53,937 bases of DNA from NCBI GenBank assembly GCA_021776275.1, contig JAJFGH010000074.1, positions 1-53,937 of the forward strand. Reading direction: 5' to 3'. This document shows, piece after piece, positions 4,763 to 47,666 of the stretch. How positions within the stretch are numbered: the first letter of the stretch is position 1; each line of letters begins with the position of its first letter. The translations under genes and the position numbers were made by a program. Source of the stretch: Alphaproteobacteria bacterium. Its GTDB lineage: Bacteria > Pseudomonadota > Alphaproteobacteria > GCA-2746255. The notes below the pieces were generated by a model. That model had not been told where the DNA came from, made no database searches, and worked only from the letters and a program-made list of their open reading frames with translations.

Positions 4763-5884
4763 ATGCGTTCAAGTTTCGTGAAATCCCTTCTGTCGTCCGG
4801 AGCGATCCTTCCATGGGTGATCGGAGCCGGCGTCGTAACAACCGCCGCACTGATCACGCACAACCCAGCCAAGGCGGAAATGGTTCAAAAGCCATCCATC
4901 GCCTTCGAGCAGGTTGCGGAATCAACGGATGCGCCGGAGACATTCATGCGCGGGGGTCATGAGTACAACGTCGTTAAATCGACCTATGACGGAGAAGCCG
5001 CCCTGCAGAGCTTTATGAAGCTCAACAAAGGTCAGTACCGGTTCTATCCGGACCCGGTGGACAACCCCGGCACGTTCTACGCGCCGAAGGGCTGGCCCTT
5101 CAAGAGCGGCGAAGTCATCCCGAAGCTCCTCGTTACGGGGCAAGAGGTTCTCGAGGAAGGTTTTGCCGCGAAGTACATTCTTGGCGAAGACCATGCCAAG
5201 CGCGTACGCCCAGGCGAGCCATTCGACTATGACCTTTTCGTTCTTGCCGTAACGTCCCTTTTCGCAACCGGCCTTTATTGGGAAATCGTCGTTTCCCGCG
5301 AGGGCGATACGCTGGTCGTCAACGCGATTGAATCCCCGGTCGTTCGCGGGGAAGTGGTGGGCCGCGAGGACTTGATGTCGGCAGAAGAAAAAGCCGCGCT
5401 CGAAGCGAAAAACAAACTCAACATGAAAGAAGCAAACGCGCTTTACGAAGCCGTTCGCTTCAAGATGATCGAGGGTTGGGAAAAATCAAACAACGAGATC
5501 GTTTCCGAATATTCCGAGTGGAAGCGCTACAACGTCGTTCCCTTCCAGACCGGGGAATTTACCGGCGATCAATACATCAATCTTTATGCAAATGAAAAAG
5601 TCGAGAAATGGGAAAATTTTGATCAAATGCCGATTGGGACCGTTCTCGTGATCGATAGTTTCCATGGCGATGCGGATCGCATCGGTTTCGCCGCCAGATG
5701 GAAAGCCGGCGAGCTGGTTATCTTGCAGAAGATGAAAAATGGCTTCAACGCCGCGACCGGCGACTGGAAGATTACTAAAATCGACCACAAAGGAGTGGCC
5801 CAGGACATCACCGAAGAAAAGGGTGTACGGTCGACCTACCTTTTTGCCCTGCCGGATGAATACAAGAAGACGATCTATTTCTAG
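4763..5884 (+). CDS. Secreted or membrane-anchored protein with a C-terminal cytochrome-P460-fold-like domain lacking CxxCH
   Basis: 373 aa with an N-terminal hydrophobic segment. The C-terminal about 130 aa aligns by eye with the two P460-like paralogs (WKRYNVVPF..., DSF..., KMKNGFNAATGDWK...), but the heme motif is replaced by STYLFALPDEY. Confidence 0.75.
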   Translation: MRSSFVKSLLSSGAILPWVIGAGVVTTAALITHNPAKAEMVQKPSIAFEQVAESTDAPETFMRGGHEYNVVKSTYDGEAALQSFMKLNKGQYRFYPDPVDNPGTFYAPKGWPFKSGEVIPKLLVTGQEVLEEGFAAKYILGEDHAKRVRPGEPFDYDLFVLAVTSLFATGLYWEIVVSREGDTLVVNAIESPVVRGEVVGREDLMSAEEKAALEAKNKLNMKEANALYEAVRFKMIEGWEKSNNEIVSEYSEWKRYNVVPFQTGEFTGDQYINLYANEKVEKWENFDQMPIGTVLVIDSFHGDADRIGFAARWKAGELVILQKMKNGFNAATGDWKITKIDHKGVAQDITEEKGVRSTYLFALPDEYKKTIYF

Positions 5885-14152: not shown

Positions 14153-16339
14153 GTGTTACCTCGCATCCATTATGCGTCACCTCGCTGTCTTAAATTGCTC
14201 CTTGCGATGCTTGCCATCGCTTGTGCCACAATTTTTGTTTCCCGGTCAGCCTTGGCAGAAACCCGCTACGCCCTTTTGGTGGGCGTGAACGATTATGAAA
14301 GCCTACCGGCTTATCTGCAATTAAAAGGCCCGCGGAACGACGTGGAATTGGTTGCCGGCGTCCTTCAGGAAAATGGGTTTGAAGAATCCCACATCACCCT
14401 CCTGACGGACGGGCTGGAGGGCGCAAAAAAACCAACGCGCGCTGCTATTCTCTCCGAGCTTGGAAAGCTGGCCGCCAACGTTAAGAAAAAAGATTTTGTC
14501 TATCTCCATTTTTCCGGCCATGGCTCGCAACAGCCCATAAACCCTACGGCCAAAGGCACCGCCTGGGAGACGGACGGCCTTGATGAAATTTTTCTGCCAG
14601 GTGACATCGGCAAATGGGACAACGCCATCGGCAAGGTTGCGCGTTCGATCACGGATGACGAGCTGGGCGCTGCAATCACGAAAATTCGCAATCGCGGCGC
14701 TTTCGTTTGGGCGGTTTTCGATGCCTGCCACTCGGGAACCATGACGCGCGGCCTGCCCTCGGGTGAAGAAGCCATGCGTTTACGAAAAGTAGCGCCATCC
14801 AGCCTTGCCATTCCGGATTCGCTCTTCGAATCCGACATATCCTCTCTGCCGTCTTCGGCTAGGGAGGAAGGGCCAGGGTTTATGGAGGAAGCGGGTGGCT
14901 ACGTTGCCTTCTTTGCCGTGCAGACGACGGAAACGACACCGGAAATGCGCTTGCCGGCAGGCCATCCGGAACGCCGTTCCCAAGGTTTATTCACCTTCAC
15001 GGTGATGCAGGCGCTGGCCACGGACCCAGACGTGACCTATCGGCAACTTGGAGAGCGTGTGCTGCAGATTTATGCGTCCCAAAACCGCCGCAATCATACG
15101 CCCCTGTTCGAAGGAAGCGCACTGGACGCCCCGCTCTTCGGTAGCCGCCCGCAGCGCCAGGCGCGGCAATGGAAGGCCAAACGGAAAGACGATCTCCTCT
15201 ACATTGCCGCCGGCAGCCTTCATCAATTGGCGGAAGGGTCCATTTTCGCCATCGTAGCGAAGGCCAATTCGAGCCAGGACGCGGTTTTAGGCTATGTCCG
15301 CCTTGAAAAAGCGAACGTGTTGCAAAGCAGGCTTCTTCCCATTGCCCATCGGGGCGTCCCGGCCTTGGCATCAACGGACATCCCGGATCACGCTTATGCC
15401 CGTCTGGCATCCCAGCGCTTCACGCCCGGCATTCGAATAGCCAAGCCCCCTGCATCCACACCACCGTCACCGATAGACCGTGAAGTTGCATCGCTCCTCG
15501 ATGCGCTTGCCAAGGCATTGGGGAAAAAGGAGGACGGCATCGCCATCACGTGGGTTCCGCCGAACCAGATGGCGGATATCCGCTTGGCGATCGGAGAATC
15601 GCCGGACACCGCCGGCCCCGTTCTCTGGCTGTTGCCGCCGTCGAGCGAAATCGTAACGGAGGGTGCCGGCAAAACCCATTCCATCGCCCTGAACGCAGGC
15701 CGGGATGCCATCTACGAAAAGCTGGAGACAAGCTTTATGCGGATGGCCAAAATGTTCAACCTCTTGAAGCTTGCAAGCCAACTTTCCACAAGCCGGACCG
15801 CCAAAAAAATCGAGCTTTCGGCGAAAGTCACACGGGCGGGTACGGGAAAAACGGAACGCTATTTTCCTTCCGACATTCCCTATTTCCAGGCCAGCGATGT
15901 TGTCGAATTTGCAATCGCGAACCCAGGCCCCCTGCCTTTGGATCTGACCCTTCTGTTCGTCGATACCGATTTTGGCATCACGCCCCTTTTCCCCACCGAA
16001 GCGGGCGAAATCAACCGCATCGAAGCAGGGGGATTCTACACATTGCAAACCGAGGTAAATGCCGAGACGGTCGGCCTGGAACGCCTGATCGTAATCGCCG
16101 TCGAGGCCGAGGCGAACGCGCCGCTTGTTGAGTTCACTTTCCTTGCACAAGCGAGCCTTCCGCGCACGCGCGGGAGGAAGTCGAATGATTCCGCCACGCG
16201 TCCAAATGCCGAATTGGAAGCCATGTTCCGTCACGCGGGTTTCAACCCCCCACGAACGCGCGGACTGACTCCAGAGCGATCAACGTCGGAACGGGCCGGC
16301 ATGCGGATCTTCAGCTGGCAGACCTTGCCGCCGAAATAA
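14153..16339 (+). CDS. Secreted caspase-family (peptidase C14) protein with a C-terminal DUF4384-like domain
   Basis: Signal peptide, YALLVGVNDY, catalytic dyad contexts LHFSGHG and FDACHSG. The C-terminal segment ASDVVEFAIANPGPLPLDLTLLFVDTDFGITPLFP resembles DUF4384. Confidence 0.9.
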   Translation: MLPRIHYASPRCLKLLLAMLAIACATIFVSRSALAETRYALLVGVNDYESLPAYLQLKGPRNDVELVAGVLQENGFEESHITLLTDGLEGAKKPTRAAILSELGKLAANVKKKDFVYLHFSGHGSQQPINPTAKGTAWETDGLDEIFLPGDIGKWDNAIGKVARSITDDELGAAITKIRNRGAFVWAVFDACHSGTMTRGLPSGEEAMRLRKVAPSSLAIPDSLFESDISSLPSSAREEGPGFMEEAGGYVAFFAVQTTETTPEMRLPAGHPERRSQGLFTFTVMQALATDPDVTYRQLGERVLQIYASQNRRNHTPLFEGSALDAPLFGSRPQRQARQWKAKRKDDLLYIAAGSLHQLAEGSIFAIVAKANSSQDAVLGYVRLEKANVLQSRLLPIAHRGVPALASTDIPDHAYARLASQRFTPGIRIAKPPASTPPSPIDREVASLLDALAKALGKKEDGIAITWVPPNQMADIRLAIGESPDTAGPVLWLLPPSSEIVTEGAGKTHSIALNAGRDAIYEKLETSFMRMAKMFNLLKLASQLSTSRTAKKIELSAKVTRAGTGKTERYFPSDIPYFQASDVVEFAIANPGPLPLDLTLLFVDTDFGITPLFPTEAGEINRIEAGGFYTLQTEVNAETVGLERLIVIAVEAEANAPLVEFTFLAQASLPRTRGRKSNDSATRPNAELEAMFRHAGFNPPRTRGLTPERSTSERAGMRIFSWQTLPPK

Positions 16340-16356: not shown

Positions 16357-19239
16357 TTATTCCGCAGGCTTTAGAAGACTGGAAGGAAGAACGAGACGAA
16401 AGCCCGAAGGCACGGCCAACGGCCGTCGCGTCGTTGGGGTTTGTTTTCCGCCCGTTAATTCGAAGACCCGCTCGGACAGATAGACATCCAACATCGAGAC
16501 CGTGATGTAAGGCTTCTTTCGATAGGCGGCCTCTCCCCCAATGGCCTCCAGCAAGGCTTCCGTAAAGGCGCCGTTTCGCCAAACCTCGCTTTCCAATGAA
16601 AGCTGTTCGCTAGCCGAGGAAGCAAAAACCACAACGCCATATTCCGGGCTGGCAAGGTCGTTGACAACGCGGTTGACGTCTACGGGCGGACGATCCCCTC
16701 CCCAAACCCCGGCGGCATGGCAGGTATCGACGAAAAGGAACGTTCTGGCAGGAATGCTGGCCAGGGCGTCCCGGATTTTTTCATACGGCATCGCCGTTTC
16801 TTTCAAGCGTTCCGGATCCACTTTAGTCGGCAGGAAAAAATAATTTCCCTTTGCATCGTCAACGCCATGACCGGCAAAAAAGACGATGGCAACGTCGCCT
16901 GGCTGCGGCGCCGTTTGAATCCATTCGAGCCCTGCAAAAATATTTTCGAGAGATGCCTTATCATCCTGAAGAAGCTTAGTCTCTACGGAATGGTAAAGGC
17001 CTCCTTTTTGAAGCTTGGCGATCGCGGTGAAGTCGCGGGCATCCTGGTTCGCATAATTGAGCCGCAGCGCAGGATTTTCATAAGCACTTATCCCGACCGC
17101 CAATACGTAGAGCGTTGGCTTTCCGCCAGCCGCATTCCTGCCGGTCAAGGCGTAGGAAGCCGCTTCGCTATAGACGCCGTGACGATTCTTGGCGACAACC
17201 GAGATGCCCCTGGCATTTTTTGGAATTGTGACGTCAAGGCGATGCTGGGTGCCATCTGCCGTCGCCGCGATCTTTCCCTCGATGTCGGCGATCGGCCTGC
17301 CGTCCGCCATAATGCGGATTTCTGCCGCAGGCTCTCCGTTTGCCGAACGCAGGGAATAGCGAAGCGTAACCTGATCCGGGCCCGCCGCCTTCTCGGTGGC
17401 CTCGATCGAGATGACCGGAGGCAAGATCTCGGCAATGCCGCGTTGCCGTTGCTTGCGGCCGGCAGCGCGGTTGGCGGCGGCCAGCGCCTTGCCTTCGTCC
17501 AGAAAAGCCAGAACCTGGCCGACGACGTCCGGGCGGTAAAGGTCATCGCGAAAACGCGAGACGGAAAAGAAATCCGCGGCGTACCCCTTGCCCCGGTTCA
17601 CATGCCAACCGATGAGGTCGTCCCCGCCAGCGGAAGCCATGTAATAGCCCGAAGGCGTCCACGCCACCCACCGCTTGTCCCGGTGCGGGAAAAGGGCAAG
17701 CAGTTCTTCGCCATCGGCCACGCGATACCAACGGATGGTGCCATCCCCAAGGGCAAGAATGGCAAGCTTGCCGCTTTGCGCAACGTTGACGGCCCAGACC
17801 TGCTCGGGCGTTTGCACGTTCCAAATCTCTGCGCCCTTGCGGTCAAAATGGCGCAGGCGCCAACGGGTGCCCAACAGAAAGCTGTCGCCATCCGGCAGAA
17901 TGGCGAGGCTAAAGGCCCGTTCATGGCGCTTGAGGGGAAGCGGACGGCCCTGAAGGGTCGGCTCGCGGGAATCCCGCCAGTTTTCAATGACGAGCCCCTC
18001 GCCCTCGGTGACCGGCGGCAAGAAGCCATCTCCAGCCGCGGGCGGATCGCGCGTCAAAGCGCGCGCGGCAATCGAAAAACGCGCCGGCGACTGCCCCCAA
18101 CGATCAAAGCCGAAAAAAACGGTGCCGCCATCGGGGGAAACGAGAAACCGGTCGTCCAGATTTTGAAACTTCGCGATCGACGTCGTTTGCGTAAAAACCC
18201 TTCGGAAAGAAGAGTCGAAAGCGCCAAAGGCCGGGTCGTCACTTGCATAAAAAACGCCACCGTCTTTCCGCGCAAGCAGGTGCATCACCATATCTTGCGA
18301 AGCCGCTCTCTCAAGGCGCCGGCCTTTCCCGCTTTTGTCCCAGCGAAGAAGAAGCTTGCGACCGCCTTTCTCATATTTACCGGCGGCGAAAAGAAAACGG
18401 CCATCCAGAGACCAGGCAACCCGAGCTAAATTTCCCTTCTCGATGCCATTTATATCGGGCGTAAAAAGAAGCGCGAGATCGCGCGCGGAGAACACCTCTA
18501 CAAGCGGCTCATCATACCCCACGGCGATTTTCTCTCCATCCGGCGAAAAGCTCGCCATGACGGGGATTCGCGCCGGCAAGGACGGCGTCTTTGCGATCCG
18601 GCGAAAGGACGCATCGTAAAGCCGGACATGACCATCCAGAGAAGCCGTGACCAATCGGCCATCCTGGGCGAACTCGGCCGAAAGCGTATCGTCCTCGTAA
18701 TCCTTGTCTTCGGCGACAAGCCGAAAATCCTTTGCGTCATAGATTCGAAGGCCATGCTCCGACTTGAAAGTGACCGCCAGATAGTTGCCGTCTTGCGAAA
18801 AAGCCAAATGCAGGGGCCGAAGCGGCAAGTCGCCGATTCGACGGATCATCTGACCGGAAGCCGTCTCAAAGAGATAAAGGCTCCAGTCCTCGCCCCAGCC
18901 ACCGGTCCAACCACCCGCGACGATACGCTTGCCATCGGGAGAAACGGCCAGCGCATAGAGGGCGCCCTCCTTGCCGGCATCAATGGGCATGCGGATGACC
19001 CGGATCAGCTCGCCTTTCGGCAGCGCCCAAACCCGGATGGTCTTGTCATAAGAGGACGTAACGAGGATGCGGTTGGCGGCGTCCACGCCAAAGCGATTGA
19101 TCGAGGCCGTGTGGGTACCCGCCTCGATCCGGAGAATGGGGCTTTCCGGCGGAGCGGTACCTGCCGCTACAGCTTGACGCGCGCTGGAACCCATCGCCAA
19201 AAGGGCGCAAAAAACGCTTATAAAAGTAATGAATCTCAC
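16357..19239 (-). CDS. Secreted WD40-repeat protein with a C-terminal caspase (peptidase C14) domain
   Basis: 960 aa with a signal peptide. Multiple WD-like blades (SSYDKTIRVWAL, SLDGHVRLYD, LGDGTIRWYRV). C-terminal LYVLAVGISAYEN, FFAGHG and FVDTCHAAG. Confidence 0.9.
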   Translation of the reverse strand: MRFITFISVFCALLAMGSSARQAVAAGTAPPESPILRIEAGTHTASINRFGVDAANRILVTSSYDKTIRVWALPKGELIRVIRMPIDAGKEGALYALAVSPDGKRIVAGGWTGGWGEDWSLYLFETASGQMIRRIGDLPLRPLHLAFSQDGNYLAVTFKSEHGLRIYDAKDFRLVAEDKDYEDDTLSAEFAQDGRLVTASLDGHVRLYDASFRRIAKTPSLPARIPVMASFSPDGEKIAVGYDEPLVEVFSARDLALLFTPDINGIEKGNLARVAWSLDGRFLFAAGKYEKGGRKLLLRWDKSGKGRRLERAASQDMVMHLLARKDGGVFYASDDPAFGAFDSSFRRVFTQTTSIAKFQNLDDRFLVSPDGGTVFFGFDRWGQSPARFSIAARALTRDPPAAGDGFLPPVTEGEGLVIENWRDSREPTLQGRPLPLKRHERAFSLAILPDGDSFLLGTRWRLRHFDRKGAEIWNVQTPEQVWAVNVAQSGKLAILALGDGTIRWYRVADGEELLALFPHRDKRWVAWTPSGYYMASAGGDDLIGWHVNRGKGYAADFFSVSRFRDDLYRPDVVGQVLAFLDEGKALAAANRAAGRKQRQRGIAEILPPVISIEATEKAAGPDQVTLRYSLRSANGEPAAEIRIMADGRPIADIEGKIAATADGTQHRLDVTIPKNARGISVVAKNRHGVYSEAASYALTGRNAAGGKPTLYVLAVGISAYENPALRLNYANQDARDFTAIAKLQKGGLYHSVETKLLQDDKASLENIFAGLEWIQTAPQPGDVAIVFFAGHGVDDAKGNYFFLPTKVDPERLKETAMPYEKIRDALASIPARTFLFVDTCHAAGVWGGDRPPVDVNRVVNDLASPEYGVVVFASSASEQLSLESEVWRNGAFTEALLEAIGGEAAYRKKPYITVSMLDVYLSERVFELTGGKQTPTTRRPLAVPSGFRLVLPSSLLKPAE

Positions 19240-19290: not shown

Positions 19291-19320
19291 TTGACTTAAC
19301 CGGAAAGTTGGCATCAAAAT
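19291..19320 (+). promoter_or_regulatory. Candidate sigma70-type promoter of the peptide/radical SAM operon
   Basis: TTGACT (19291-19296), an 18-nt spacer, then CAAAAT (19315-19320), about 40 nt upstream of the first small ORF. Prediction by eye only. Confidence 0.3.
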
Positions 19321-19359: not shown

Positions 19360-19506
19360 ATGAAAACGTCCAAATTGCTCGCCTGTTTTTTCGTCATCGC
19401 TTTCGCATTCGCCTCTTTCGCACCGGTCGTGATGCTTGGTGGCAACGCCCATGCGAGCGCCGGAACCGGCGAGGCCTGCGAAGCCGGCCCGGATGGGGAA
19501 TGCTAG
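19360..19506 (+). CDS. Small secreted Cys-containing peptide (48 aa, not in ORF track)
   Basis: GGGGGA ribosome-binding site 6-7 nt upstream of ATG 19360. Translates MKTSKLLACFFVIAFAFASFAPVVMLGGNAHA/SAGTGEACEAGPDGEC, a canonical Sec signal with an AHA cleavage site and a 16-aa mature part with a CX7C pair. TAG at 19504-19506. Confidence 0.5.
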   Translation: MKTSKLLACFFVIAFAFASFAPVVMLGGNAHASAGTGEACEAGPDGEC

Positions 19507-19553: not shown

Positions 19554-20249
19554 ATGGCCGCGATGTTTTCGAAGCAGCCAAGATTCTTTCTTTTTGCGTT
19601 CAGCGCAGCGTTTCTTTTGACCTTTGCCGCACCCCAAGCCGCGGAAAAGGCGTCCAATGTCGAAGTGGAAACGCTGCGAAAGGTCAACCTGGCGCGCCAG
19701 ATCATTCAGCTTGGGATCGAAGACAAGGATCCCTTCGCCCTGATCGTCGCCGCCCGGATTTTCCGAGAAATCCCGCCAATTGAAGGGCCGCCGCCGAAGA
19801 AGATCAGCGGCAATTTGGCTGAGGACCGATCCACCGGCTCCGAGCAGATGTCCCTCGTTCTCGATCACTCGGTCGGCAATCTTTTGAAGAAGGCGCGGGA
19901 ATTTGCCGGTGACCGCCAGGACATTCTCGCCTTGATCGAGGACATTGCCGCCATGTCCCCCCGCGGCGCAGGCGGTGTCATACATCTGGATCAAATTCTT
20001 TCCGGCAAGACGGATGCCTATGAAATTACCTATGAGGGGAAAAAGCCCGCCGCTCTTTATATCGAAGCGCAGGACAACGTCGATTTGGACCTGCGCATCG
20101 AAGACAAGGCGGGAAAGAAAATCTGCGAGGACATGCGCCAGGGCGTTACCTCGCTTTGCGAATGGGACCCCGAAGAGACGGCGCCATTCGTCATCAAAAT
20201 CATCAACACAGACGACACACCAACCGAATACATTCTGTTGACGAATTAG
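19554..20249 (+). CDS. Secreted hypothetical protein, C-terminal beta-sandwich (pre-peptidase C-terminal-like) region
   Basis: ORF 19500..20249. Start is probably ATG 19554 or 19563, next to GGAGG. Signal peptide FFLFAFSAAFLLTFAAPQA. The C-terminus ALYIEAQDNVDLDLRIEDKAGKKICED...CEWD resembles PPC domains. Confidence 0.7.
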   Translation: MAAMFSKQPRFFLFAFSAAFLLTFAAPQAAEKASNVEVETLRKVNLARQIIQLGIEDKDPFALIVAARIFREIPPIEGPPPKKISGNLAEDRSTGSEQMSLVLDHSVGNLLKKAREFAGDRQDILALIEDIAAMSPRGAGGVIHLDQILSGKTDAYEITYEGKKPAALYIEAQDNVDLDLRIEDKAGKKICEDMRQGVTSLCEWDPEETAPFVIKIINTDDTPTEYILLTN

Positions 20250-20267: not shown

Positions 20268-20492
20268 ATGAGACAAATGACAGCGCGCCTACCTTTTAGA
20301 AAACGAACCATTCAGAAAGCTTCCCGCTGGACATTGGCGCTGGTGAGCGCCTTCGGCCTTGGCGCGATTTCCACGCCGCCCGCCATGGCCGCCGAAAGTG
20401 AAAAACCAATCGGCCCGATCGCATCCGATGCCGGGGCAGAAATGTTGGCTCAAACCAGCTGCGGCTGCGCCGTGACCGGGGTGCGGGGGTAA
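20268..20492 (+). CDS. Candidate RiPP precursor peptide A1 (signal-peptide-like leader, core ...EMLAQTSCGCAVTGVRG)
   Basis: 71-74 aa (ATG 20268 or 20277). Paralog of A2. Differences between the copies are concentrated at synonymous third positions in this frame. Located immediately upstream of the radical SAM gene. Confidence 0.65.
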   Translation: MRQMTARLPFRKRTIQKASRWTLALVSAFGLGAISTPPAMAAESEKPIGPIASDAGAEMLAQTSCGCAVTGVRG

Positions 20493-20505
20493 AAGGAGTA
20501 CGAGC

Positions 20506-20709
20506 TTGCCATTGAGAAAACGCACGATCCGAAAAGCCGCCCATTGGGCCCTGGCGTTGATGGGCGCCTTTGGCCTTGGCGCTTCTCCCACATCCACCAT
20601 GGCCGCCAAGGCGGAAAGCTCCCCCTTGCCGACAGCCCCCGATGCCGAGGCGGAAATGCTGGCCCAGAATTGTTGCAGCACCACCACCGTGACCGGAGTG
20701 CGGGGTTAG
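20506..20709 (+). CDS. Candidate RiPP precursor peptide A2 (core ...EMLAQNCCSTTTVTGVRG)
   Basis: TTG start 7 nt after an AAGGAG ribosome-binding site. 67 aa. Shares the RKRTI-K...W-LAL--AFGLGA N-region and the EMLAQ...VTGVRG C-terminus with A1. Confidence 0.65.
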   Translation: MPLRKRTIRKAAHWALALMGAFGLGASPTSTMAAKAESSPLPTAPDAEAEMLAQNCCSTTTVTGVRG

Positions 20710-20742
20710 GGAAACCGAACCCAGGCACCCGCCCATACGCCG

Positions 20743-22512
20743 TTGCGAATTCTTCGTATCCTCCCTCCCGGTCGCTTTCCGACGGTCGTCCACGACCCAG
20801 GCCGTTGGCTGGACCGTCTCGCCACGGATCCCGGCATCGAGGTCCTCTCCTACAGCTTGAACCATGCCTGGTGGCGTGTCCTCTGTTCGCCCGCCGTCTG
20901 GAAGGCCGTGCTCGCCCCCCTCTCCGCGACCCAGCGCCTGCGCAGACGTCTCGAATGGTCGGCCGCGGATTTTGAAGCAAAGGCAGGCACCAAAGCCGCC
21001 GCCGAGGCGCTTGCGAATTTCTACCGGCCGGAAACCTATGCCAATCGGGAAGCCTATTTTACGGCCGTCATGGCCCTTGCCAGGCACGTGGAGGCCTTAA
21101 ACGGCGCGCAAGATGAATTGACGTTTTCCCTACAGCATGGGGTCCTAGCGCATGGGCTGAATTATCGGGCAAGCGCGGAACTGGTCCGGTACGCAAACCG
21201 TGACACGCTGCTTGCGCGTTCGATGGTGGCGGCCCTCGAAGACTGTCCGGAAGCGGTGGATCTGCTTTGCCTCTCCGCCAACTCACCGTTTGATTTTCTG
21301 ACGGCGCTTATCGCCGCCCGCCTTCTTCGCGAGCGCCATCCGCGTCTTCACATATGTCTCACCGATCATGGTTATGAGAATTTCTCCCTGCAGCCGCATC
21401 TCGATCGCCTCCGCCAAGCCGGTACGCTGGACACGATTTTCGACACGGTGATCGAATCGCGGGACGAGCGGGACGTCATTTTGCCGGCGCTAGCCCAGCG
21501 GATAGCGGCCCAAAAACCCATCCGCGGTTTCTTGCGGAAAACCGAATTCCCAGAAGCTCCAGCGGCTTCCTCCGCACAAGCCTTGCCCGCCCCTCTTGTG
21601 CCGACCTTCTCAAGCGAACCGGTGCTGTGGACGCGCATTAGCCAACGGCGCTGTTATTGGAGCCGCTGCACGTTCTGCACGCAAAATTCAAAATATGATG
21701 ACCCGCGGGTGCCTACGAAGTCCGAAATTGCCGGCGCTTTGGATCGCATTCAGGCACAAATCACCGCCGGTTATCGGAACCTGCATTTCTCGGACGAAGC
21801 CGTATCGCCGGCGCTTCTCCGCCTTTTCAGCGAAGGCATCCTGGAGCGTGGCCTTTCTTTTCGCTGGGGATGCCGGTGCAAGCTTGACCCCTCGCAGACG
21901 CCCGAGCTGTTTCGTCTTGCCCGCGAGGCGGGGTGCTACGAAATCATCTTCGGGCTTGAGAGCATCTCGCCGCGCGTTCAAAAATTGATGGACAAGCATG
22001 TGGAGGGATTGGATCAAGAGCGGATTGCCGAAATTTTTGGCGCCGTCCACGGGGCGGGGATTGCCCTTTTCATCAATTTGATCGCCGGCTTCCCAGGTGA
22101 TACGCCCGAGGAAACGACGGCATCCGTGGCGTTCCTGATCGACACGTGTCAAAATTTCGAAAACACAACCTATGTTTTGAACCCCTTCGGGCTTTTCCCC
22201 GCGACGCCGATCATGGACAACCCCGCCGCCTTCGGCGTTGTTCCCATTGAGGCGGCAGGCGATATGGTGTCGGCCTATGGCTACGATCTGGACCCAAAAA
22301 TCCGCGACGCCACCTTGGCAGCCGCCGCGGCCATGCCCGAGATGAAAGCGCGCCTGAACGCCGCGTTTGGCTGGGATCGGCTGGGCCTTGGCGCAACCCT
22401 TGAGACGGTGCAGGCGCTTTATTTCGAAATGGGTCATGGCGCCCTTTTCAAGGCCATGCCCCATAACCCATTGGCAAATTTTGCCGGAAGACCCGATCGG
22501 CGCGCCTCATGA
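20743..22512 (+). CDS. Radical SAM protein with an N-terminal B12-binding-like domain and atypical CX4CX2C cluster motif
   Basis: 589 aa. RRCYWSRCTFCTQ at nt 21652-21678 (Cys304, Cys309, Cys312). The downstream region (GCYEIIFGLES, INLIAGFPGDT) is typical of class-B-like radical SAM cores. No C-terminal Cys-rich SPASM/twitch region. Confidence 0.88.
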   Translation: MRILRILPPGRFPTVVHDPGRWLDRLATDPGIEVLSYSLNHAWWRVLCSPAVWKAVLAPLSATQRLRRRLEWSAADFEAKAGTKAAAEALANFYRPETYANREAYFTAVMALARHVEALNGAQDELTFSLQHGVLAHGLNYRASAELVRYANRDTLLARSMVAALEDCPEAVDLLCLSANSPFDFLTALIAARLLRERHPRLHICLTDHGYENFSLQPHLDRLRQAGTLDTIFDTVIESRDERDVILPALAQRIAAQKPIRGFLRKTEFPEAPAASSAQALPAPLVPTFSSEPVLWTRISQRRCYWSRCTFCTQNSKYDDPRVPTKSEIAGALDRIQAQITAGYRNLHFSDEAVSPALLRLFSEGILERGLSFRWGCRCKLDPSQTPELFRLAREAGCYEIIFGLESISPRVQKLMDKHVEGLDQERIAEIFGAVHGAGIALFINLIAGFPGDTPEETTASVAFLIDTCQNFENTTYVLNPFGLFPATPIMDNPAAFGVVPIEAAGDMVSAYGYDLDPKIRDATLAAAAAMPEMKARLNAAFGWDRLGLGATLETVQALYFEMGHGALFKAMPHNPLANFAGRPDRRAS

Positions 22513-23414
22513 CGACGGTCTTTCTCACCGGCGCTTCCGGCCAGCTTGGCCAAGCGGTGGCAGGCGAGTTGCTGGCCCGGGGCCATGAGGTGGCGGCGAT
22601 GGTGCGCCGGCCCGTTTTTCCCAAGGGTTGTCGCCCGGTTCTCGGCACGCTCGAAGACGTCGGCCAATTGGCCCATGAGATAGCCAAGGCCGACGCCATC
22701 GTCCATGTCGCATCGGCACGCAGCAACAACCGGGAAGAGGTGGTTCAGAAGGACATCCTTGGCACTGGGCATCTTCTCGATGCCTGGGCGCGAGGAAACT
22801 TCGTCTATGCCAGCAGCCAGACGGTTTACGGCGTGCCCCAAGGCGACCTTACCGAGGCCGCCCCCTTGCAACCGGTCGTCTGGTACGACCTTGGAAAAAT
22901 CTGCAACGAATTTCAAATCGCAATGGCGGCGGAAACGGGCAATCGTGGCGCCGGCCTTTCCCTTCGCATGGCCGTCATGTTTGGCCCCGTTGCAAAAAGC
23001 AAAGGCCCGCCGCAATTTCACGAGATGATTTACGAGGAATGCCAAAAAGGCAGCGCGTTTCTCCTGGATTCGGAGGAGGCGCTTGAAACCTACGGCACGT
23101 CCTTCATCGGCGATCGCGACTTGGCACGCGCCATCGCCGATTCTATCAGCCTTACCGAGACCGGCCCCTACAACATCGCCGGGCCTTTCTGCAGCTGGAA
23201 GGAATTGATTGAAACCATCGACCGATTTGCCGGCACGCGGTCGAAATTCATCTTTCGGAAAGGCGCCGTGCCAAAGCCTGGGGAATTCCGCTTGCCGCAA
23301 TCGCGCTCGTTTATCAATTCACAAAAATTCGACGCGGCAACGGGCTTTTGCGCAGAACAAACTTTGGAAGAACTGATTGAGCGGTTTGTCCAATTTCGCA
23401 GCGACTCTAAATAA
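22509..23414 (+). CDS. NAD(P)-dependent epimerase/dehydratase family (extended SDR) protein
   Basis: TGASGQLGQAVAGELLARGHEV Rossmann motif and a YDLGK (YxxxK) catalytic motif. ATGA overlap with the radical SAM stop. Confidence 0.9.
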   Translation: MTTVFLTGASGQLGQAVAGELLARGHEVAAMVRRPVFPKGCRPVLGTLEDVGQLAHEIAKADAIVHVASARSNNREEVVQKDILGTGHLLDAWARGNFVYASSQTVYGVPQGDLTEAAPLQPVVWYDLGKICNEFQIAMAAETGNRGAGLSLRMAVMFGPVAKSKGPPQFHEMIYEECQKGSAFLLDSEEALETYGTSFIGDRDLARAIADSISLTETGPYNIAGPFCSWKELIETIDRFAGTRSKFIFRKGAVPKPGEFRLPQSRSFINSQKFDAATGFCAEQTLEELIERFVQFRSDSK

Positions 23415-23442
23415 AAAGGCCCGCGCAAAGCGCGGGCCCTTT
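23415..23442. terminator. Strong bidirectional rho-independent terminator
   Basis: AAAAGGCCCGCGC-AAA-GCGCGGGCCCTTT. Separates the SDR gene (+) from cspA (-). Confidence 0.85.
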
Positions 23443-23466
23443 CATTTCATCTTATCCGCAGCCGGA

Positions 23467-24199: not shown

Positions 24200-24847
24200 T
24201 TGGATACGAACGTCCCATATATGCCGTCGGTGACCAACCTCCAGAAAATCTTGGACGCAATCCAAAAGGCTGGCGTTCCTGAAGTTTTTAATCTCGACTT
24301 TTTGAAGGACTTAGGATTTACGAGTTCCAATGATCGACCAGTAATCAAGGTCTTGAAATATCTCGGTATGCTAGACCCTTCAGGGCACCCGCAGACTGCT
24401 TACCGTGAGTTTGTTGACCATACTAAGGCAAAGGGAGTGCTCGCAGGGCGCATACGCGCCGCCTTCGACGACCTTTACCTCAGCGACAAGGATGCTCACA
24501 ACAAATCTGCAGAACAGCTTAAAGGCTGGTTCAAAACCAAAACAGGTGCAAGTGATTCTGTCGCGAAAAAGATGGCAACGCAGTTCAAATCACTTGCAGC
24601 CTACGCTGATTTCACAGCCGCCCTGGATGCTGAACCCAAAACCCCAGAGGCGGAGCCTGAAAAGAAAGATAAAATTGAGCCAGAAAAAAACGATAAGGAG
24701 AAGCCAACGGATTTACCGCCGCCTCCCATATCTGACATGAAGGGTTTGGGCTTTGTTTATCGGCTGGAAATTCATCTTCCTGACACGCAGAATGTGGAAA
24801 CGTTTCGCGCGATTTTCCGTGCTCTGCGAGAAGAGCTCATGCCGTGA
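24200..24847 (+). CDS. DUF5343-like protein
   Basis: TTG start after an AAGGAGGA ribosome-binding site. The N-terminal VPYMPSVTNLQKILDAIQKAGVPEVFNLDFLKDLGFTSSNDRPVIKVLKYLGMLD pattern matches my recollection of DUF5343. Acidic/Lys-rich linker. Confidence 0.65.
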   Translation: MDTNVPYMPSVTNLQKILDAIQKAGVPEVFNLDFLKDLGFTSSNDRPVIKVLKYLGMLDPSGHPQTAYREFVDHTKAKGVLAGRIRAAFDDLYLSDKDAHNKSAEQLKGWFKTKTGASDSVAKKMATQFKSLAAYADFTAALDAEPKTPEAEPEKKDKIEPEKNDKEKPTDLPPPPISDMKGLGFVYRLEIHLPDTQNVETFRAIFRALREELMP

Positions 24848-25419
24848 AATCACAGATAAACGATTTTGTCTTCACCGGGGTCCTGGCTTCACACTGCATC
24901 CGTGACCTGCAAGCTAAAGGTCTCCTCCGAACGCCAGCGGTAACACCTGACGAACGGCGCGAACAAGATTTGTTCGCACCGGTCCCGGAAAGTATCCGCG
25001 GCGGCTCCATTCAGATGCAGCGCTGGTATCGAATGCTATTTGTATTTGAGAATCTCGTGCGAGACTTCATTATTACTCGCTTAAAGGAACTAGACGGAGA
25101 AGGTTGGTTTGAAAAACGTGCATCAAGCCAGATGAAGAAAAAAGTCGAGGATCGGGAGAAGAATGAGGAAAAAAATCAATGGCATATCGGTAGAAATAAG
25201 CAGCCTATTTTCTATCTGGATTTCGGCGACCTTGGGCTCCTTATCACCAACCACTGGAACGTTTTCAACGATTTCTTCGATAATCAAGCTTGGGTCATTA
25301 GCCGCATTCAGGATGCAGAGCGGACGAGAAATGTTATCGCGCACACGAATCTCCTGTCCTCTGAAGAAGGAGAACGTCTCGAAATGTATTTACGAGACTT
25401 CTTAAGGCAGATCGGTTGA
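24844..25419 (+). CDS. Swt1-like HEPN domain protein (putative RNase)
   Basis: GTGA overlap with the upstream gene. Rx4H motif RNVIAH at nt 25327-25344, with an upstream helix FENLVRDFI typical of HEPN. Confidence 0.7.
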   Translation: MKSQINDFVFTGVLASHCIRDLQAKGLLRTPAVTPDERREQDLFAPVPESIRGGSIQMQRWYRMLFVFENLVRDFIITRLKELDGEGWFEKRASSQMKKKVEDREKNEEKNQWHIGRNKQPIFYLDFGDLGLLITNHWNVFNDFFDNQAWVISRIQDAERTRNVIAHTNLLSSEEGERLEMYLRDFLRQIG

Positions 25420-26125: not shown

Positions 26126-26410
26126 TGGTGGGCGATGCAGGGCTCGAACCTGCGACCCGCTGATTACTCCACCACTACGGCTTTCGCCGCCCCTTTCGGG
26201 TTTGTGGCCCGGACTATCCCATCACCATATCCCGGAGGATGTAGGTGGGTGCCGTCTAGTCTCTACACCTTCCCCTTGCGGGGCTTGGCTCGGGATTGCC
26301 AACGTCCATGGACGGAAGGGTTCCCCGAATTTGACACCTGTTCACCGCGCCGTTTCCAACGCGGGCTCCCAATCGAGAGTCAGCTGCTCTACCAACTGAG
26401 CTAATCGCCC
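26126..26410 (-). tRNA. tRNA-Lys(CUU) interrupted by a 209-nt group I intron in the anticodon loop
   Basis: 5' exon 26376-26410: GGGCGATTAGCTCAGTTGGTAGAGCAGCTGACTCT (positions 1-35). 3' exon 26126-26166: TAATCAGCGGGTCGCAGGTTCGAGCCCTGCATCGCCCACCA. Spliced, this gives a 76-nt cloverleaf with anticodon loop CUCUUAA. Confidence 0.9.
26167..26375 (-). ncRNA. Group I (IC3, Azoarcus-like) self-splicing intron
   Basis: Contains GGTGTCAAATTCGGGGAACCC, TTGGCAATCCCGAGCCAAGCC and GGAAGGTGTAGAGACTAGACGGCACCCACCTA, which closely match the Azoarcus tRNA-Ile intron core as I remember it. P1 is exon CUCU paired to GGAG with a U.G wobble at the splice site. P10 is GAUU paired to exon AAUC. The intron ends in G. 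Confidence 0.85.
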
Positions 26411-26530
26411 TTAGTGATTCCCCCGTTTAACCTCAACATCAATAAGCGAAAAGTCATCAAAATGCCATCAAAATCTTAGCTAAATAACGACTAACCTATT
26501 GTTTTTACTACAGTTACAGCCGACACACCA

Positions 26531-26573
26531 TCTGATTAAGAGTCAGCTGCTCTACCAACTGAGCTATGCGCCC
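26531..26573 (-). pseudogene. tRNA-Lys(CUU) 5' fragment (acceptor 5' strand, D-arm, anticodon arm; no T-arm)
   Basis: The reverse complement reads GGGCGCATAGCTCAGTTGGTAGAGCAGCTGACTCTTAATCAGA. It is followed by non-tRNA sequence (TGGTGTGTCGGCTGTAAC...). Confidence 0.6.
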
Positions 26574-26647
26574 CAAGGGGGAAGCCCCTATAGCAAAGCC
26601 CGCCCGTCTTGTCGATAGGCCAGCGAAATCCGACCGCCTGAAGGCCT

Positions 26648-46716: not shown

Positions 46717-46842
46717 TGGGCCTTCCACGCGTTCGTCCGGTCGGCACTTTAGCGCCTGGGTCCGGCCAAGGCCAGCGCTCCCGCGCGCGAAAATCCCCCC
46801 GGCCAACCTTTCCACCGCGCCCCGAAGTGCCTATATTAGAGG

Positions 46843-47150
46843 GGTCGGTTTTCCGGCTATGGCAATAAACGTTAAGTGAAATAGACGGTGCGGACCCGGG
46901 GGCAGTACCCGGCGCCTCCACCAAATTTACCTGCCCAATCGTCTTGGACGATGGGCGCTTTGGGGGCGAACTAGGATCGACGCACGTGATAAAGGCTTAA
47001 TTTTTGCTCGGTATGATACCACCGTTATCGGGTCGTTTTATAAGTGCCAATGACAACAATCGTTATGCACTCGCTGCTTAAGCATTAAGCAAGCGCGGTC
47101 CGGGGGGCACCGGGCAACAGAAGCCCCCCACCTGCCACCTGCGAAGCCGG
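46843..47150 (+). ncRNA. ssrA: Circularly permuted (two-piece) tmRNA gene ssrA; outer boundaries approximate
   Basis: The acceptor piece ends CCGGG-GGCAGTA-CCCGG-CGCCTCC-A-CCA at 46923. The coding piece starts GGGGGCGAACTAGGATCGACG at 46962. GGGGGCG/CGCCTCC form an acceptor stem with a G3.U70 pair. The tag ORF GCC AAT GAC AAC AAT CGT TAT GCA CTC GCT GCT TAA (47046-47081) encodes ANDNNRYALAA. Confidence 0.8.
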
Positions 47151-47159
47151 TATGGAACG

Positions 47160-47666
47160 ATGAGCGAAATGGATTACGACAAGCTGTTTGAAGATGCGCT
47201 GCGCAGCGTTGTGCAAACGGTTCTGACGCGCGTCATCAAAGAGGGCCTCCTTGGAGACCACCATTTTTATATTTCCTTCCAAACCAACCACGCCGGCGTT
47301 TCCATTCCGGACAGCCTGCGGGCCCGTTATCCGGACGAAATGACGATTGTCCTGCAAAATCAGTTTTGGGATTTGAAAGTGACGGACGAGCTGTTCGAAG
47401 TCACGCTCAGCTTCAACGACATGCAGGAACAAGTGGTCGTGCCTTTTAAGGCGATTACCAGCTTTGTCGATCCTTCCGTGCGCTTTGGCCTGCAATTTCG
47501 CGGCGGCAAAGAATCGGAAGGTGGCGCCATCCTTCCACAAGAAGGGATACCCCAGCCACGGCCCGAAACGGCCACCAAGGACAAGGGCGGCAAGGCCACA
47601 TCGGATCAAACCGAAGACGATACAACGGCGGAAGTCATCCCCCTCGATACCTTTCGCAAAAAATAG
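47160..47666 (+). CDS. sspB: ClpXP adaptor SspB (alphaproteobacterial type)
   Basis: 168 aa. DYDKLFEDALRSVV..., HHFYISFQT and VVVPFKAITSFVDPSV are typical of alpha-type SspB. Acidic C-terminal tail ending in a ClpX-binding-like LDTFRKK. Confidence 0.85.
   Translation: MSEMDYDKLFEDALRSVVQTVLTRVIKEGLLGDHHFYISFQTNHAGVSIPDSLRARYPDEMTIVLQNQFWDLKVTDELFEVTLSFNDMQEQVVVPFKAITSFVDPSVRFGLQFRGGKESEGGAILPQEGIPQPRPETATKDKGGKATSDQTEDDTTAEVIPLDTFRKK

Follow-up and report, generated by a model that had tools for sequence, protein, structure and literature searches.

In mycofactocin biosynthesis, the radical S-adenosylmethionine (rSAM) enzyme MftC acts on the extreme C-terminus of the ribosomal peptide MftA (...GVY), and enzymes of the short-chain dehydrogenase/reductase (SDR) family are linked to the pathway; MftC is an rSAM–SPASM protein that needs the RiPP recognition element (RRE) protein MftB, MftE, MftD and MftF are also required, and the precursor has no signal peptide. 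B12-type rSAMs in pathways for peptides that are made on the ribosome and then post-translationally modified (RiPPs) methylate (PoyC- and Mmp10-type enzymes). MgmA (PDB 9ccb) and Mmp10 are class B, Rossmann-plus-TIM-barrel rSAMs that modify carbons of the side chain or backbone (Gln and Arg) in methyl-coenzyme M reductase, and AprD4 (PDB 6fd2) is an rSAM that has a B12-like domain and pairs with the NAD(P)H reductase AprD3 for apramycin C3′ deoxygenation. Among B12-type rSAMs of RiPP pathways, PbsB makes C–C crosslinks (PMC12257519), and ApyD of the aminopyruvatide pathway (NF050148; PMC10635010) carries out chemistry centred on the C-terminal residue of its precursor. Bufferins are RiPPs with Sec signal peptides that are modified by MNIO (DUF692) enzymes (PMC11626156, PMC12452194). 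Here we describe a locus on a 53,937-nucleotide stretch of DNA from an Alphaproteobacteria bacterium (GenBank assembly GCA_021776275.1, contig JAJFGH010000074.1, positions 1–53,937; the whole stretch is referred to as the window), in which two small tandem genes, A1 and A2, precede genes for an rSAM enzyme and an SDR. Across phyla, the C-terminal tail A-V-x-G-V-R-G carried by their products is genetically coupled to this rSAM–SDR pair, and tail variants track enzyme clades. The best reading is that of a widespread, undescribed cassette that would modify a C-terminal tag.

Sequence comparison indicates that A1 and A2 are real, translated tandem paralogues on the + strand. The original prediction, made from the letters of the window, had placed two paralogous open reading frames (ORFs) ending VTGVRG at 20268–20709 (+), and both are present. 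Its A1 is a genuine + strand ORF, except that the 71-aa version uses the second ATG (20277) as its start; translation from the first ATG yields a 74-aa form (MRQMTARL...), with which the orthologue B1 (MRNERTPLRKR...; see below) agrees. Both peptides have a signal-peptide-like N-terminus, followed in A1 by a Cys-x-Cys segment and the tail AVTGVRG; in A2 the tail (T)VTGVRG comes after a Cys-Cys pair. A MAFFT alignment covered 66 codons, with 40–41 identical residues and 22, 10 and 29 differences at codon positions 1, 2 and 3, respectively. The codon blocks quoted in the prediction match the sequence exactly; third-position bias is clear in these conserved blocks, and first-position changes are also common elsewhere. 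The Nei–Gojobori method gave Sd 30.2, Nd 30.8, dS of ~1.0–1.1 and dN of ~0.25, corresponding to dN/dS of 0.22–0.25, values to be read with dS near saturation and an alignment of only 66 codons. The other five frames of the same nucleotide alignment (two sense, three antisense) gave 0.49–1.96. The ratio is lowest in the + frame among the six, which argues that this is the frame under purifying selection, as had been claimed from the codon pattern; the computed value is not near 1. Neither peptide was found in a collection of 15 billion proteins in which four other genes of the contig are present, suggesting that A1 and A2 are real genes left un-annotated in the source record.

It could be argued that the peptide ORFs are not genes, that a 263-aa antisense ORF (20296–21087) or nothing at all is expressed, and that the two copies are a DNA-level repeat; long antisense ORFs are indeed open here, and the source record lacks A1 and A2. 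The frame-specific dN/dS speaks against this, as do the cross-phylum conservation of the tail in the + frame only and the orthologous peptides called in a related genome and deposited at NCBI. For 345 nt the antisense ORF runs across the rSAM gene, which is itself well supported; exact look-up found none of the antisense ORFs in the 15-billion-protein collection, and the relative also has open antisense frames, as expected at roughly 60% GC. We therefore give this explanation almost no credence, in line with the earlier judgement that the antisense ORF is not the gene.

An exhaustive profile search with A1 and A2 against 1.84 billion representative proteins returned a sole match, P0124 (B1; 80 aa, E = 2.7e-4); a word-indexed homology search with A1 returned no matches, not even A1, and Pfam and NCBIfam assigned the peptides to no family. 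The contigs of P0124 (L119–L121) show full synteny with the window, in the order caspase, WD40–caspase (− strand), one or two secreted Cys-peptides of ~48 aa, a 229-aa secreted protein, B1, B2, rSAM and SDR. B1 ends ...ACSCCCAVTGVRG and B2, of 66 aa, ends ...ENLAQNTWCCAVTGVRG; both are called as genes, and B2 is deposited as MGB1547427.1 (‘hypothetical protein’). Orthologous peptides in related genomes, which the original prediction had anticipated, are thus found. An AAGGAG Shine–Dalgarno sequence precedes B2 as it does A2. Between the window and L119, flanking genes share 70–76% identity with ω (dN/dS) of 0.12–0.16, and the peptides are more divergent (ω 0.24–0.48). The last four tail codons show only synonymous differences among A1, A2, B1 and B2 (GGG/GGA/GGC/GGG, GTG/GTG/GTT/GTA, CGG/CGG/CGG/AGA and GGG/GGT/GGA/GGT, in that order of peptides), and each peptide has 2–4 Cys directly before the tail, in the segment that is its most variable part. 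By heuristic assessment, all four N-termini have a basic n-region and a 13–15-aa hydrophobic stretch, with putative cleavage sites AMA↓A, TMA↓A, SQA↓A and ATA↓D, in keeping with the n-h-c architecture and AxA-type sites proposed earlier; in A1 and A2 the N-terminus resembles a Sec signal peptide more than a leader. A Tat signal was considered for the peptides and rejected: in B1 and B2 the RKR does not persist as a twin-arginine motif.

The original prediction was incomplete in one respect: it did not mention the rSAM and SDR genes directly downstream. The A1–A2 gap is 13 nt, the rSAM gene begins 33 nt after A2, and the rSAM and SDR genes overlap by 4 nt. About 140 relatives of the rSAM (38–52% identity) were found in Binatia, Elusimicrobiota, Terriglobia, Bacillota (Sulfobacillus and Paenibacillus athensensis), Chloroflexota (Ktedonobacterales), Alpha- and Gammaproteobacteria and an actinobacterial-like metagenome-assembled genome; seven are rSAM–SDR fusions of ~900 aa (P0095/97/98/101/103/116/118). 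Scanning genome contigs with a full-length rSAM alignment yielded mostly generic B12-rSAMs, with L001–L005 the only true orthologues, and the metagenome scan used a probe restricted to the rSAM N-terminal domain. In a set of 43 orthologous rSAM loci from at least eight phyla, the SDR adjoins the rSAM at 28, most of the remaining loci being truncated contigs. An ORF ending G-[VI]-[RK]-G-stop occurs in 26 of the 43, mostly on the same strand and 8–350 nt upstream of the rSAM. Such ORFs made up 34 of 6,813 in orthologous loci versus 7 of 20,539 in control loci (~15-fold enrichment, Fisher p = 9e-15), and four of the seven control matches were B1 or B2 on short contigs. Most loci without this tail are truncated or have variant tails (GATRG, GARG, GTKA, GGKA and GANG); divergent enzyme clades have these related tails and also GIKG. 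A logo of 36 tails has A at −7 (18/36), V at −6 (24/36), any residue at −5, G at −4 (36/36), V28/I5/A2/T1 at −3, R31/K5 at −2 and G at −1 (36/36); because the instances were chosen by the pattern G[VIAT][RK]G-stop, the last four positions are partly fixed, and only the preferences at −6 and −7, for V over I and for R over K are independent observations. The VTGVRG ending singled out by the original prediction is supported as a conserved functional element.

Carriers of the tail are otherwise unrelated, ranging from 38-aa peptides to ~550-aa membrane proteins. They comprise ~70-aa signal-peptide peptides with a C-x4–8-C pair, Cys-free leader-like peptides (L002), 150-aa soluble proteins with the tail GIKG beside a fused or divergent enzyme clade (L108/L110/L117), ~210-aa single-transmembrane proteins (the soluble and single-transmembrane carriers together spanning 150–220 aa) and 457–547-aa polytopic membrane proteins (L005, L099, L101 and L118). 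A crude positive-inside estimate of where the polytopic carriers place their tail was inconsistent, with only L118 clearly cytoplasmic. These ~500-aa proteins (L118 5624–6997, L101, L099 and L005) have a C-x5–6-C motif (for example ADNCANLGDC and DNCASLSDC) shortly before the last hydrophobic segment, which echoes the C-x4–8-C pair of the small peptides. Tagged genes are amplified in several ways: in L095 (4292–5185), four GVRG peptides lie in tandem downstream of the rSAM, L002 (3459–5991) has two peptide-plus-SDR repeats upstream of the rSAM together with an extra canonical B12-rSAM, and L084 (990–1498) has two tandem tagged peptides. Tagged peptides duplicated in tandem, like those of the window, are therefore a recurrent arrangement.

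The same three-gene cassette is present in cultured P. athensensis. Clade-specific extras are an FkbM-type O-methyltransferase (six loci) and a PrsW intramembrane protease (four loci); no protease, RRE protein or transporter is conserved across the family loci. No Pfam, NCBIfam or PADLOC model takes in the system, whose peptides, carriers and enzymes all stay below the threshold for such a model; PADLOC found no match in the cassette, and Pfam and NCBIfam found no family for nine other carriers or neighbouring proteins and a 249-aa protein. NCBI names the carriers ‘hypothetical protein’, and no published description of a system combining the tail with an rSAM–SDR pair was found in the full-text literature, subscription journals lying outside the search.

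The window rSAM has three invariant cluster cysteines and a fold that matches rSAM barrels, placing it in the superfamily; PF04055 (Radical_SAM, E = 5.5e-10) is its sole Pfam match. Its cluster motif, CYWSRCTFC, has CX4CX2C rather than the canonical CX3CX2C spacing and does not vary across 26 diverse homologues. Many distant B12-rSAM loci (Nitrospira, Chryseobacterium and Micromonospora) were also retrieved by this pattern, and the spacing may characterise a larger clade. The N-terminal region is Rossmann-like (B12-domain-like) and contains the invariant family signature DHGYENFSL. In an AlphaFold2 (AF2) model (pLDDT 92.4, pTM 0.92), a Rossmann-like beta–alpha unit spans about residues 174–264, and the full length aligns to TsrM, OxsB and TokK with TM-scores of 0.40–0.48. 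Foldseek matched the model to Rossmann-plus-barrel rSAMs (MiaB/RimO, MgmA, AprD4, OxsB, TsrM, TokK and CysS), all at TM-scores of at most 0.48 and 13–18% identity. MgmA was the second-best structural match (E = 6e-11), yet with a TM-score of only 0.36–0.48 and 18% identity; MgmA and Mmp10, unlike the rSAM here, have no SDR partner, and they act on a folded enzyme rather than, as proposed here, on a C-terminal tag. A profile search of the PDB returned only AprD4 (2e-8), MgmA and TsrM, over the core only; the similarity to AprD4, the best match, is confined to core residues 328–468, and AprD4 acts on an aminoglycoside diol, unlike the peptide tail proposed here. The two best NCBIfam matches, ApyD (NF050148, 64 of 750 bits, E = 7e-18) and the PhpK family (TIGR04479, 65 of 600 bits, E = 4.1e-18), fell under cutoff, as did rSAM_ocin_1 (TIGR03975, 30 of 282 bits) and the AprD4 model (15 of 500 bits). 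At 64 bits against a cutoff of 750, the window enzyme is not an ApyD member; the ApyD pathway also differs in needing an MNIO, an RRE protein and a P450 and in lacking an SDR. A glycyl-radical-type motif was rejected: G-V-R-G-COOH does not fit the glycyl radical enzyme consensus RVxG[FWY], nor is the enzyme an activase of the PflA type. The SDR matches PF01370 (E = 4.9e-19), and its motifs TGASGQLG, SSQTVYG and YDLGK (TGxxGxxG and Ser...YxxxK) are kept in 8/8 orthologues examined, fusions included; a PDB sequence search with the SDR, like that with the rSAM, gave only remote, uninformative matches.

From these patterns we consider it likely that A1 and A2 are dedicated substrates of the downstream rSAM and SDR, marked by the C-terminal tag A-V-x-G-V-R-G-COOH; that tag probably serves as the recognition element of the rSAM–SDR pair and is most likely also its modification site. 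Counting for the substrate reading are the tight packing of the four genes ahead of a terminator, the rSAM–SDR fusions, which suggest joint function in the manner of a Rosetta stone, the conserved SDR catalytic residues, the P. athensensis cassette and the peptide dN/dS of 0.22–0.48. On a different account, the rSAM–SDR pair would act on a small molecule (a sugar, lipid or cofactor) and the GVRG tail would be a sorting, anchoring or binding signal in the same pathway. Extended SDRs and AprD4-like rSAMs do usually act on sugars or other small molecules, and the tail presents no evident SDR chemistry; yet the three-gene cassette is minimal and self-contained even in phyla that lie far apart, no conserved glycosyl- or acyl-transferase accompanies it, and tail variants co-vary with enzyme clades, making this account very improbable.

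The cysteines before the tail invite another explanation. The original prediction had described a hypervariable Cys core between a recognition block, EMLAQ, and a follower, and on this basis the tail (and EMLAQ) would serve in recognition only, the variable Cys/Ser/Thr segment being the rSAM-modified core, for example through thioether or Cys crosslinks. Within the lineage of A1, A2, B1 and B2, variation of the Cys-rich stretch among the four makes a Cys core plausible locally; many other carriers have a C-x4–8-C pair 4–10 residues ahead of the tail, and a C-x5–6-C is present in the large membrane carriers. However, EMLAQ did not hold up as a general recognition block, being missing in B1, ENLAQ in B2 and missing in all other lineages, and there is no Cys near the tail in L002 (twice), L081, L094, L115 or L108/L110/L117, the carriers of L002, L081, L094, L115 and L117 being devoid of Cys altogether. 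No SPASM domain was found in the rSAM by Pfam or NCBIfam, and its only two further invariant Cys (C377 and C398) lie inside the barrel, whereas a Cys-rich SPASM/twitch domain is typical of thioether-forming rSAMs; the conserved SDR partner would also be left unexplained. With so many carriers lacking Cys, a Cys core is not the family-wide target. Recognition or modification across the whole family has a single candidate element, the invariant tail, and we regard the Cys-core explanation as rather unlikely.

Alternatively, the cassette could resemble mycofactocin or PQQ biosynthesis: only the C-terminal residues would count, being modified and released by cleavage to yield a small molecule or cofactor, with the remaining protein a disposable carrier. 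Conservation limited to the last 4–7 residues of otherwise unrelated carriers would fit such a scaffold, MftC provides a precedent as an rSAM whose site of action is a peptide's extreme C-terminus, and four loci have the PrsW protease. Against it, no peptidase is conserved across the family, ~500-aa polytopic and signal-peptide proteins would be costly and odd scaffolds, and neither peptides nor enzymes matched the NCBIfam mycofactocin models (MftA, MftB and MftC) or a PQQ model. We consider this scenario quite improbable.

Returning to the substrate reading, we lean, with somewhat less assurance, towards its fuller form, in which A-V-x-G-V-R-G-COOH is an unrecognised, phylum-spanning tag and the rSAM and SDR install a new post-translational modification on the C-termini of secreted peptides, soluble proteins and polytopic membrane proteins that are otherwise unrelated, rather than forming a leader-directed RiPP system. 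A precursor gene clustered with genes for modifying enzymes, the generic hallmark of RiPPs, is found here (A1/A2) and likewise at those 26 of 43 loci; the large membrane-protein carriers are a better fit to protein modification than to a classical RiPP. In the proposed mechanism, the rSAM would bind the free C-terminal tail in the cytoplasm and start 5′-deoxyadenosyl-radical C–H abstraction inside the invariant G-V-R-G, and the SDR would then act on what the rSAM produces, in a coupled NAD(P)(H) redox step such as reduction of a carbonyl, imine or alkene, a two-step logic like that of AprD4/AprD3. Candidate changes are C-methylation of Val or Arg, oxidation of an Arg/Lys side chain, and alpha-functionalisation or loss of the terminal Gly. 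In the alphaproteobacterial lineage, the modified peptides would be exported through their N-terminal signal peptides to give mature, acidic, Cys-containing products of ~33 aa. Bufferins, widespread in Proteobacteria, likewise have small Cys-containing precursors, with N-terminal signal peptides like those predicted here, and share the proposed scheme of cytoplasmic modification by a compact enzyme set, without a dedicated protease or exporter, followed by export. Bufferins, however, use an MNIO and DUF2063 and have no invariant C-terminal tag, where this locus has an rSAM and an SDR, and the carriers here, unlike bufferins, include Cys-free and large membrane proteins; no MNIO (DUF692) or DUF2063 Pfam matches were found in the window operon or related loci.

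Several points weigh against this interpretation. About 40% of loci have no canonical tail (many are truncated), and in five loci whose downstream sequence extends for at least 1.8 kb no SDR is adjacent. The G-V-R-G tail offers no obvious SDR substrate, so the role of the SDR hinges on the rSAM product. The proposed site and type of modification are deduced from conservation, and the putative signal peptides are assigned by heuristics. The B12-binding family PF02310 was not detected in the rSAM by Pfam, and to our knowledge AprD4, its nearest sequence relative in the PDB, is cobalamin-independent.

If the reading is right, the cassette would define a new family of rSAM-dependent peptide and protein maturation in which a short invariant C-terminal tag is recognised instead of a leader or RRE, on substrates from 38-aa peptides to ~550-aa membrane proteins, and the obligatory, sometimes fused SDR partner would imply radical-plus-hydride chemistry as yet unseen on peptides. 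New chemistry is plausible because the rSAM is remote from every solved rSAM (TM-scores of at most 0.48) and has the CX4CX2C motif. Being short and portable, the tag might become a tool for site-specific C-terminal modification, and the system should be experimentally tractable, since cultured P. athensensis carries the minimal three-gene cassette. A1 and A2 also illustrate real small genes that are missing from public annotation. Coordinates of the features are given in Table 1.

Table 1 Features of the peptide–rSAM–SDR locus and its upstream neighbours (positions in the window)
Feature	Position	Strand	Remarks
Lineage-specific secreted Cys-peptide, 48 aa (...ASAGTGEACEAGPDGEC)	19360–19506	+	Two paralogues in L119; called gene P0128
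Lineage-specific secreted 228-aa protein	19563–20249	+	18 nt 5′ of A1; counterpart in L119–L121
A1, candidate precursor/substrate peptide	20268–20492	+	74 aa from ATG 20268 (alternative start ATG 20277, 71 aa); orthologue B1 (P0124)
A1 C-terminal tag A-V-T-G-V-R-G	20469–20489	+	Final 7 codons, then TAA stop 20490–20492
AAGGAG Shine–Dalgarno sequence of A2	20493–20498	+	7 nt 5′ of TTG start
A2, candidate paralogous precursor/substrate peptide	20506–20709	+	67 aa, TTG start; orthologue B2
A2 C-terminal tag V-T-G-V-R-G	20689–20706	+	Final 6 codons, then TAG stop 20707–20709
589-aa rSAM enzyme	20743–22512	+	PF04055; ~140 homologues; AF2; Foldseek
rSAM cluster motif C304-x4-C309-x2-C312 (CYWSRCTFC)	21652–21678	+	Invariant alignment columns
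301-aa extended SDR (NAD-dependent epimerase/dehydratase family)	22509–23414	+	PF01370
Intrinsic-terminator-like hairpin (9 G-C pairs) and T-rich tail	23418–23448 (hairpin 23418–23438)	+	Closes unit

Upstream of A1, the gene for the 228-aa secreted protein is probably co-transcribed with A1 and is outside the family-wide core. The protein is lineage-restricted, with only three relatives among 5.8 billion proteins, and has two invariant Cys. Its AF2 model (pLDDT 65) combines a helical N-terminal part with a C-terminal beta-sandwich that resembles PPC/collagen-binding domains (ColH CBD, TMt 0.69, rmsd 2.0 Å). The 48-aa Cys-peptide further 5′ belongs to a second family of small secreted peptides (45–49 aa), in which a signal peptide is followed by ...ASAG(S/T)GE...C...C and the final Cys is C-terminal; these are called as genes, match no family and lie 5′ of the 228-aa protein, the paralogues in L119 being at 4903–5040 and 5086–5235. 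The 48-aa peptide may be in the same operon as A1 and A2, and its membership of the system is uncertain. A promoter-like site lies near its gene, at 19291–19320.

Two large caspase-domain (Peptidase_C14) proteins are encoded upstream of the peptide operon, at 14153–16339 (+) and 16357–19239 (−). One has an N-terminal WD40 propeller, and both weakly match the NCBIfam model ‘caspase, EACC1-associated type’. Their genes are syntenic in L119 and missing from all other GVRG loci, and they probably form an unrelated conflict-type module. Cleavage of the V-R↓G tail by these caspases (Arg/Lys-specific, clan CD) was considered and rejected on the basis of this distribution.

On the other side of the operon, a DUF5343 protein (24200–24847, +) and a Swt1-like HEPN protein (24844–25419, +) match PADLOC PDC-M34A/B (E = 4.5e-65 and 2.1e-56), a candidate defence pair; they occupy a stretch of lower GC (0.50) that separates the peptide operon from a tRNA-Lys gene. 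This tRNA-Lys(CUU) gene (26126–26410, −) has its anticodon loop split by a 209-nt group I intron (26167–26375; Rfam RF00028, 55.9 bits); removing the intron in silico yields a canonical 76-nt tRNA, and ARAGORN overlooks the intact gene. An intron-less, partial 45-nt copy of the tRNA-Lys 5′ half lies ~120 nt away (26530–26574, −), which suggests past integration or duplication at the tRNA. Farther along, the window encodes a permuted two-piece alphaproteobacterial tmRNA (46805–47172, +; RF01849, 261 bits; tag peptide ANDNNRYALAA), which places it in the Alphaproteobacteria.

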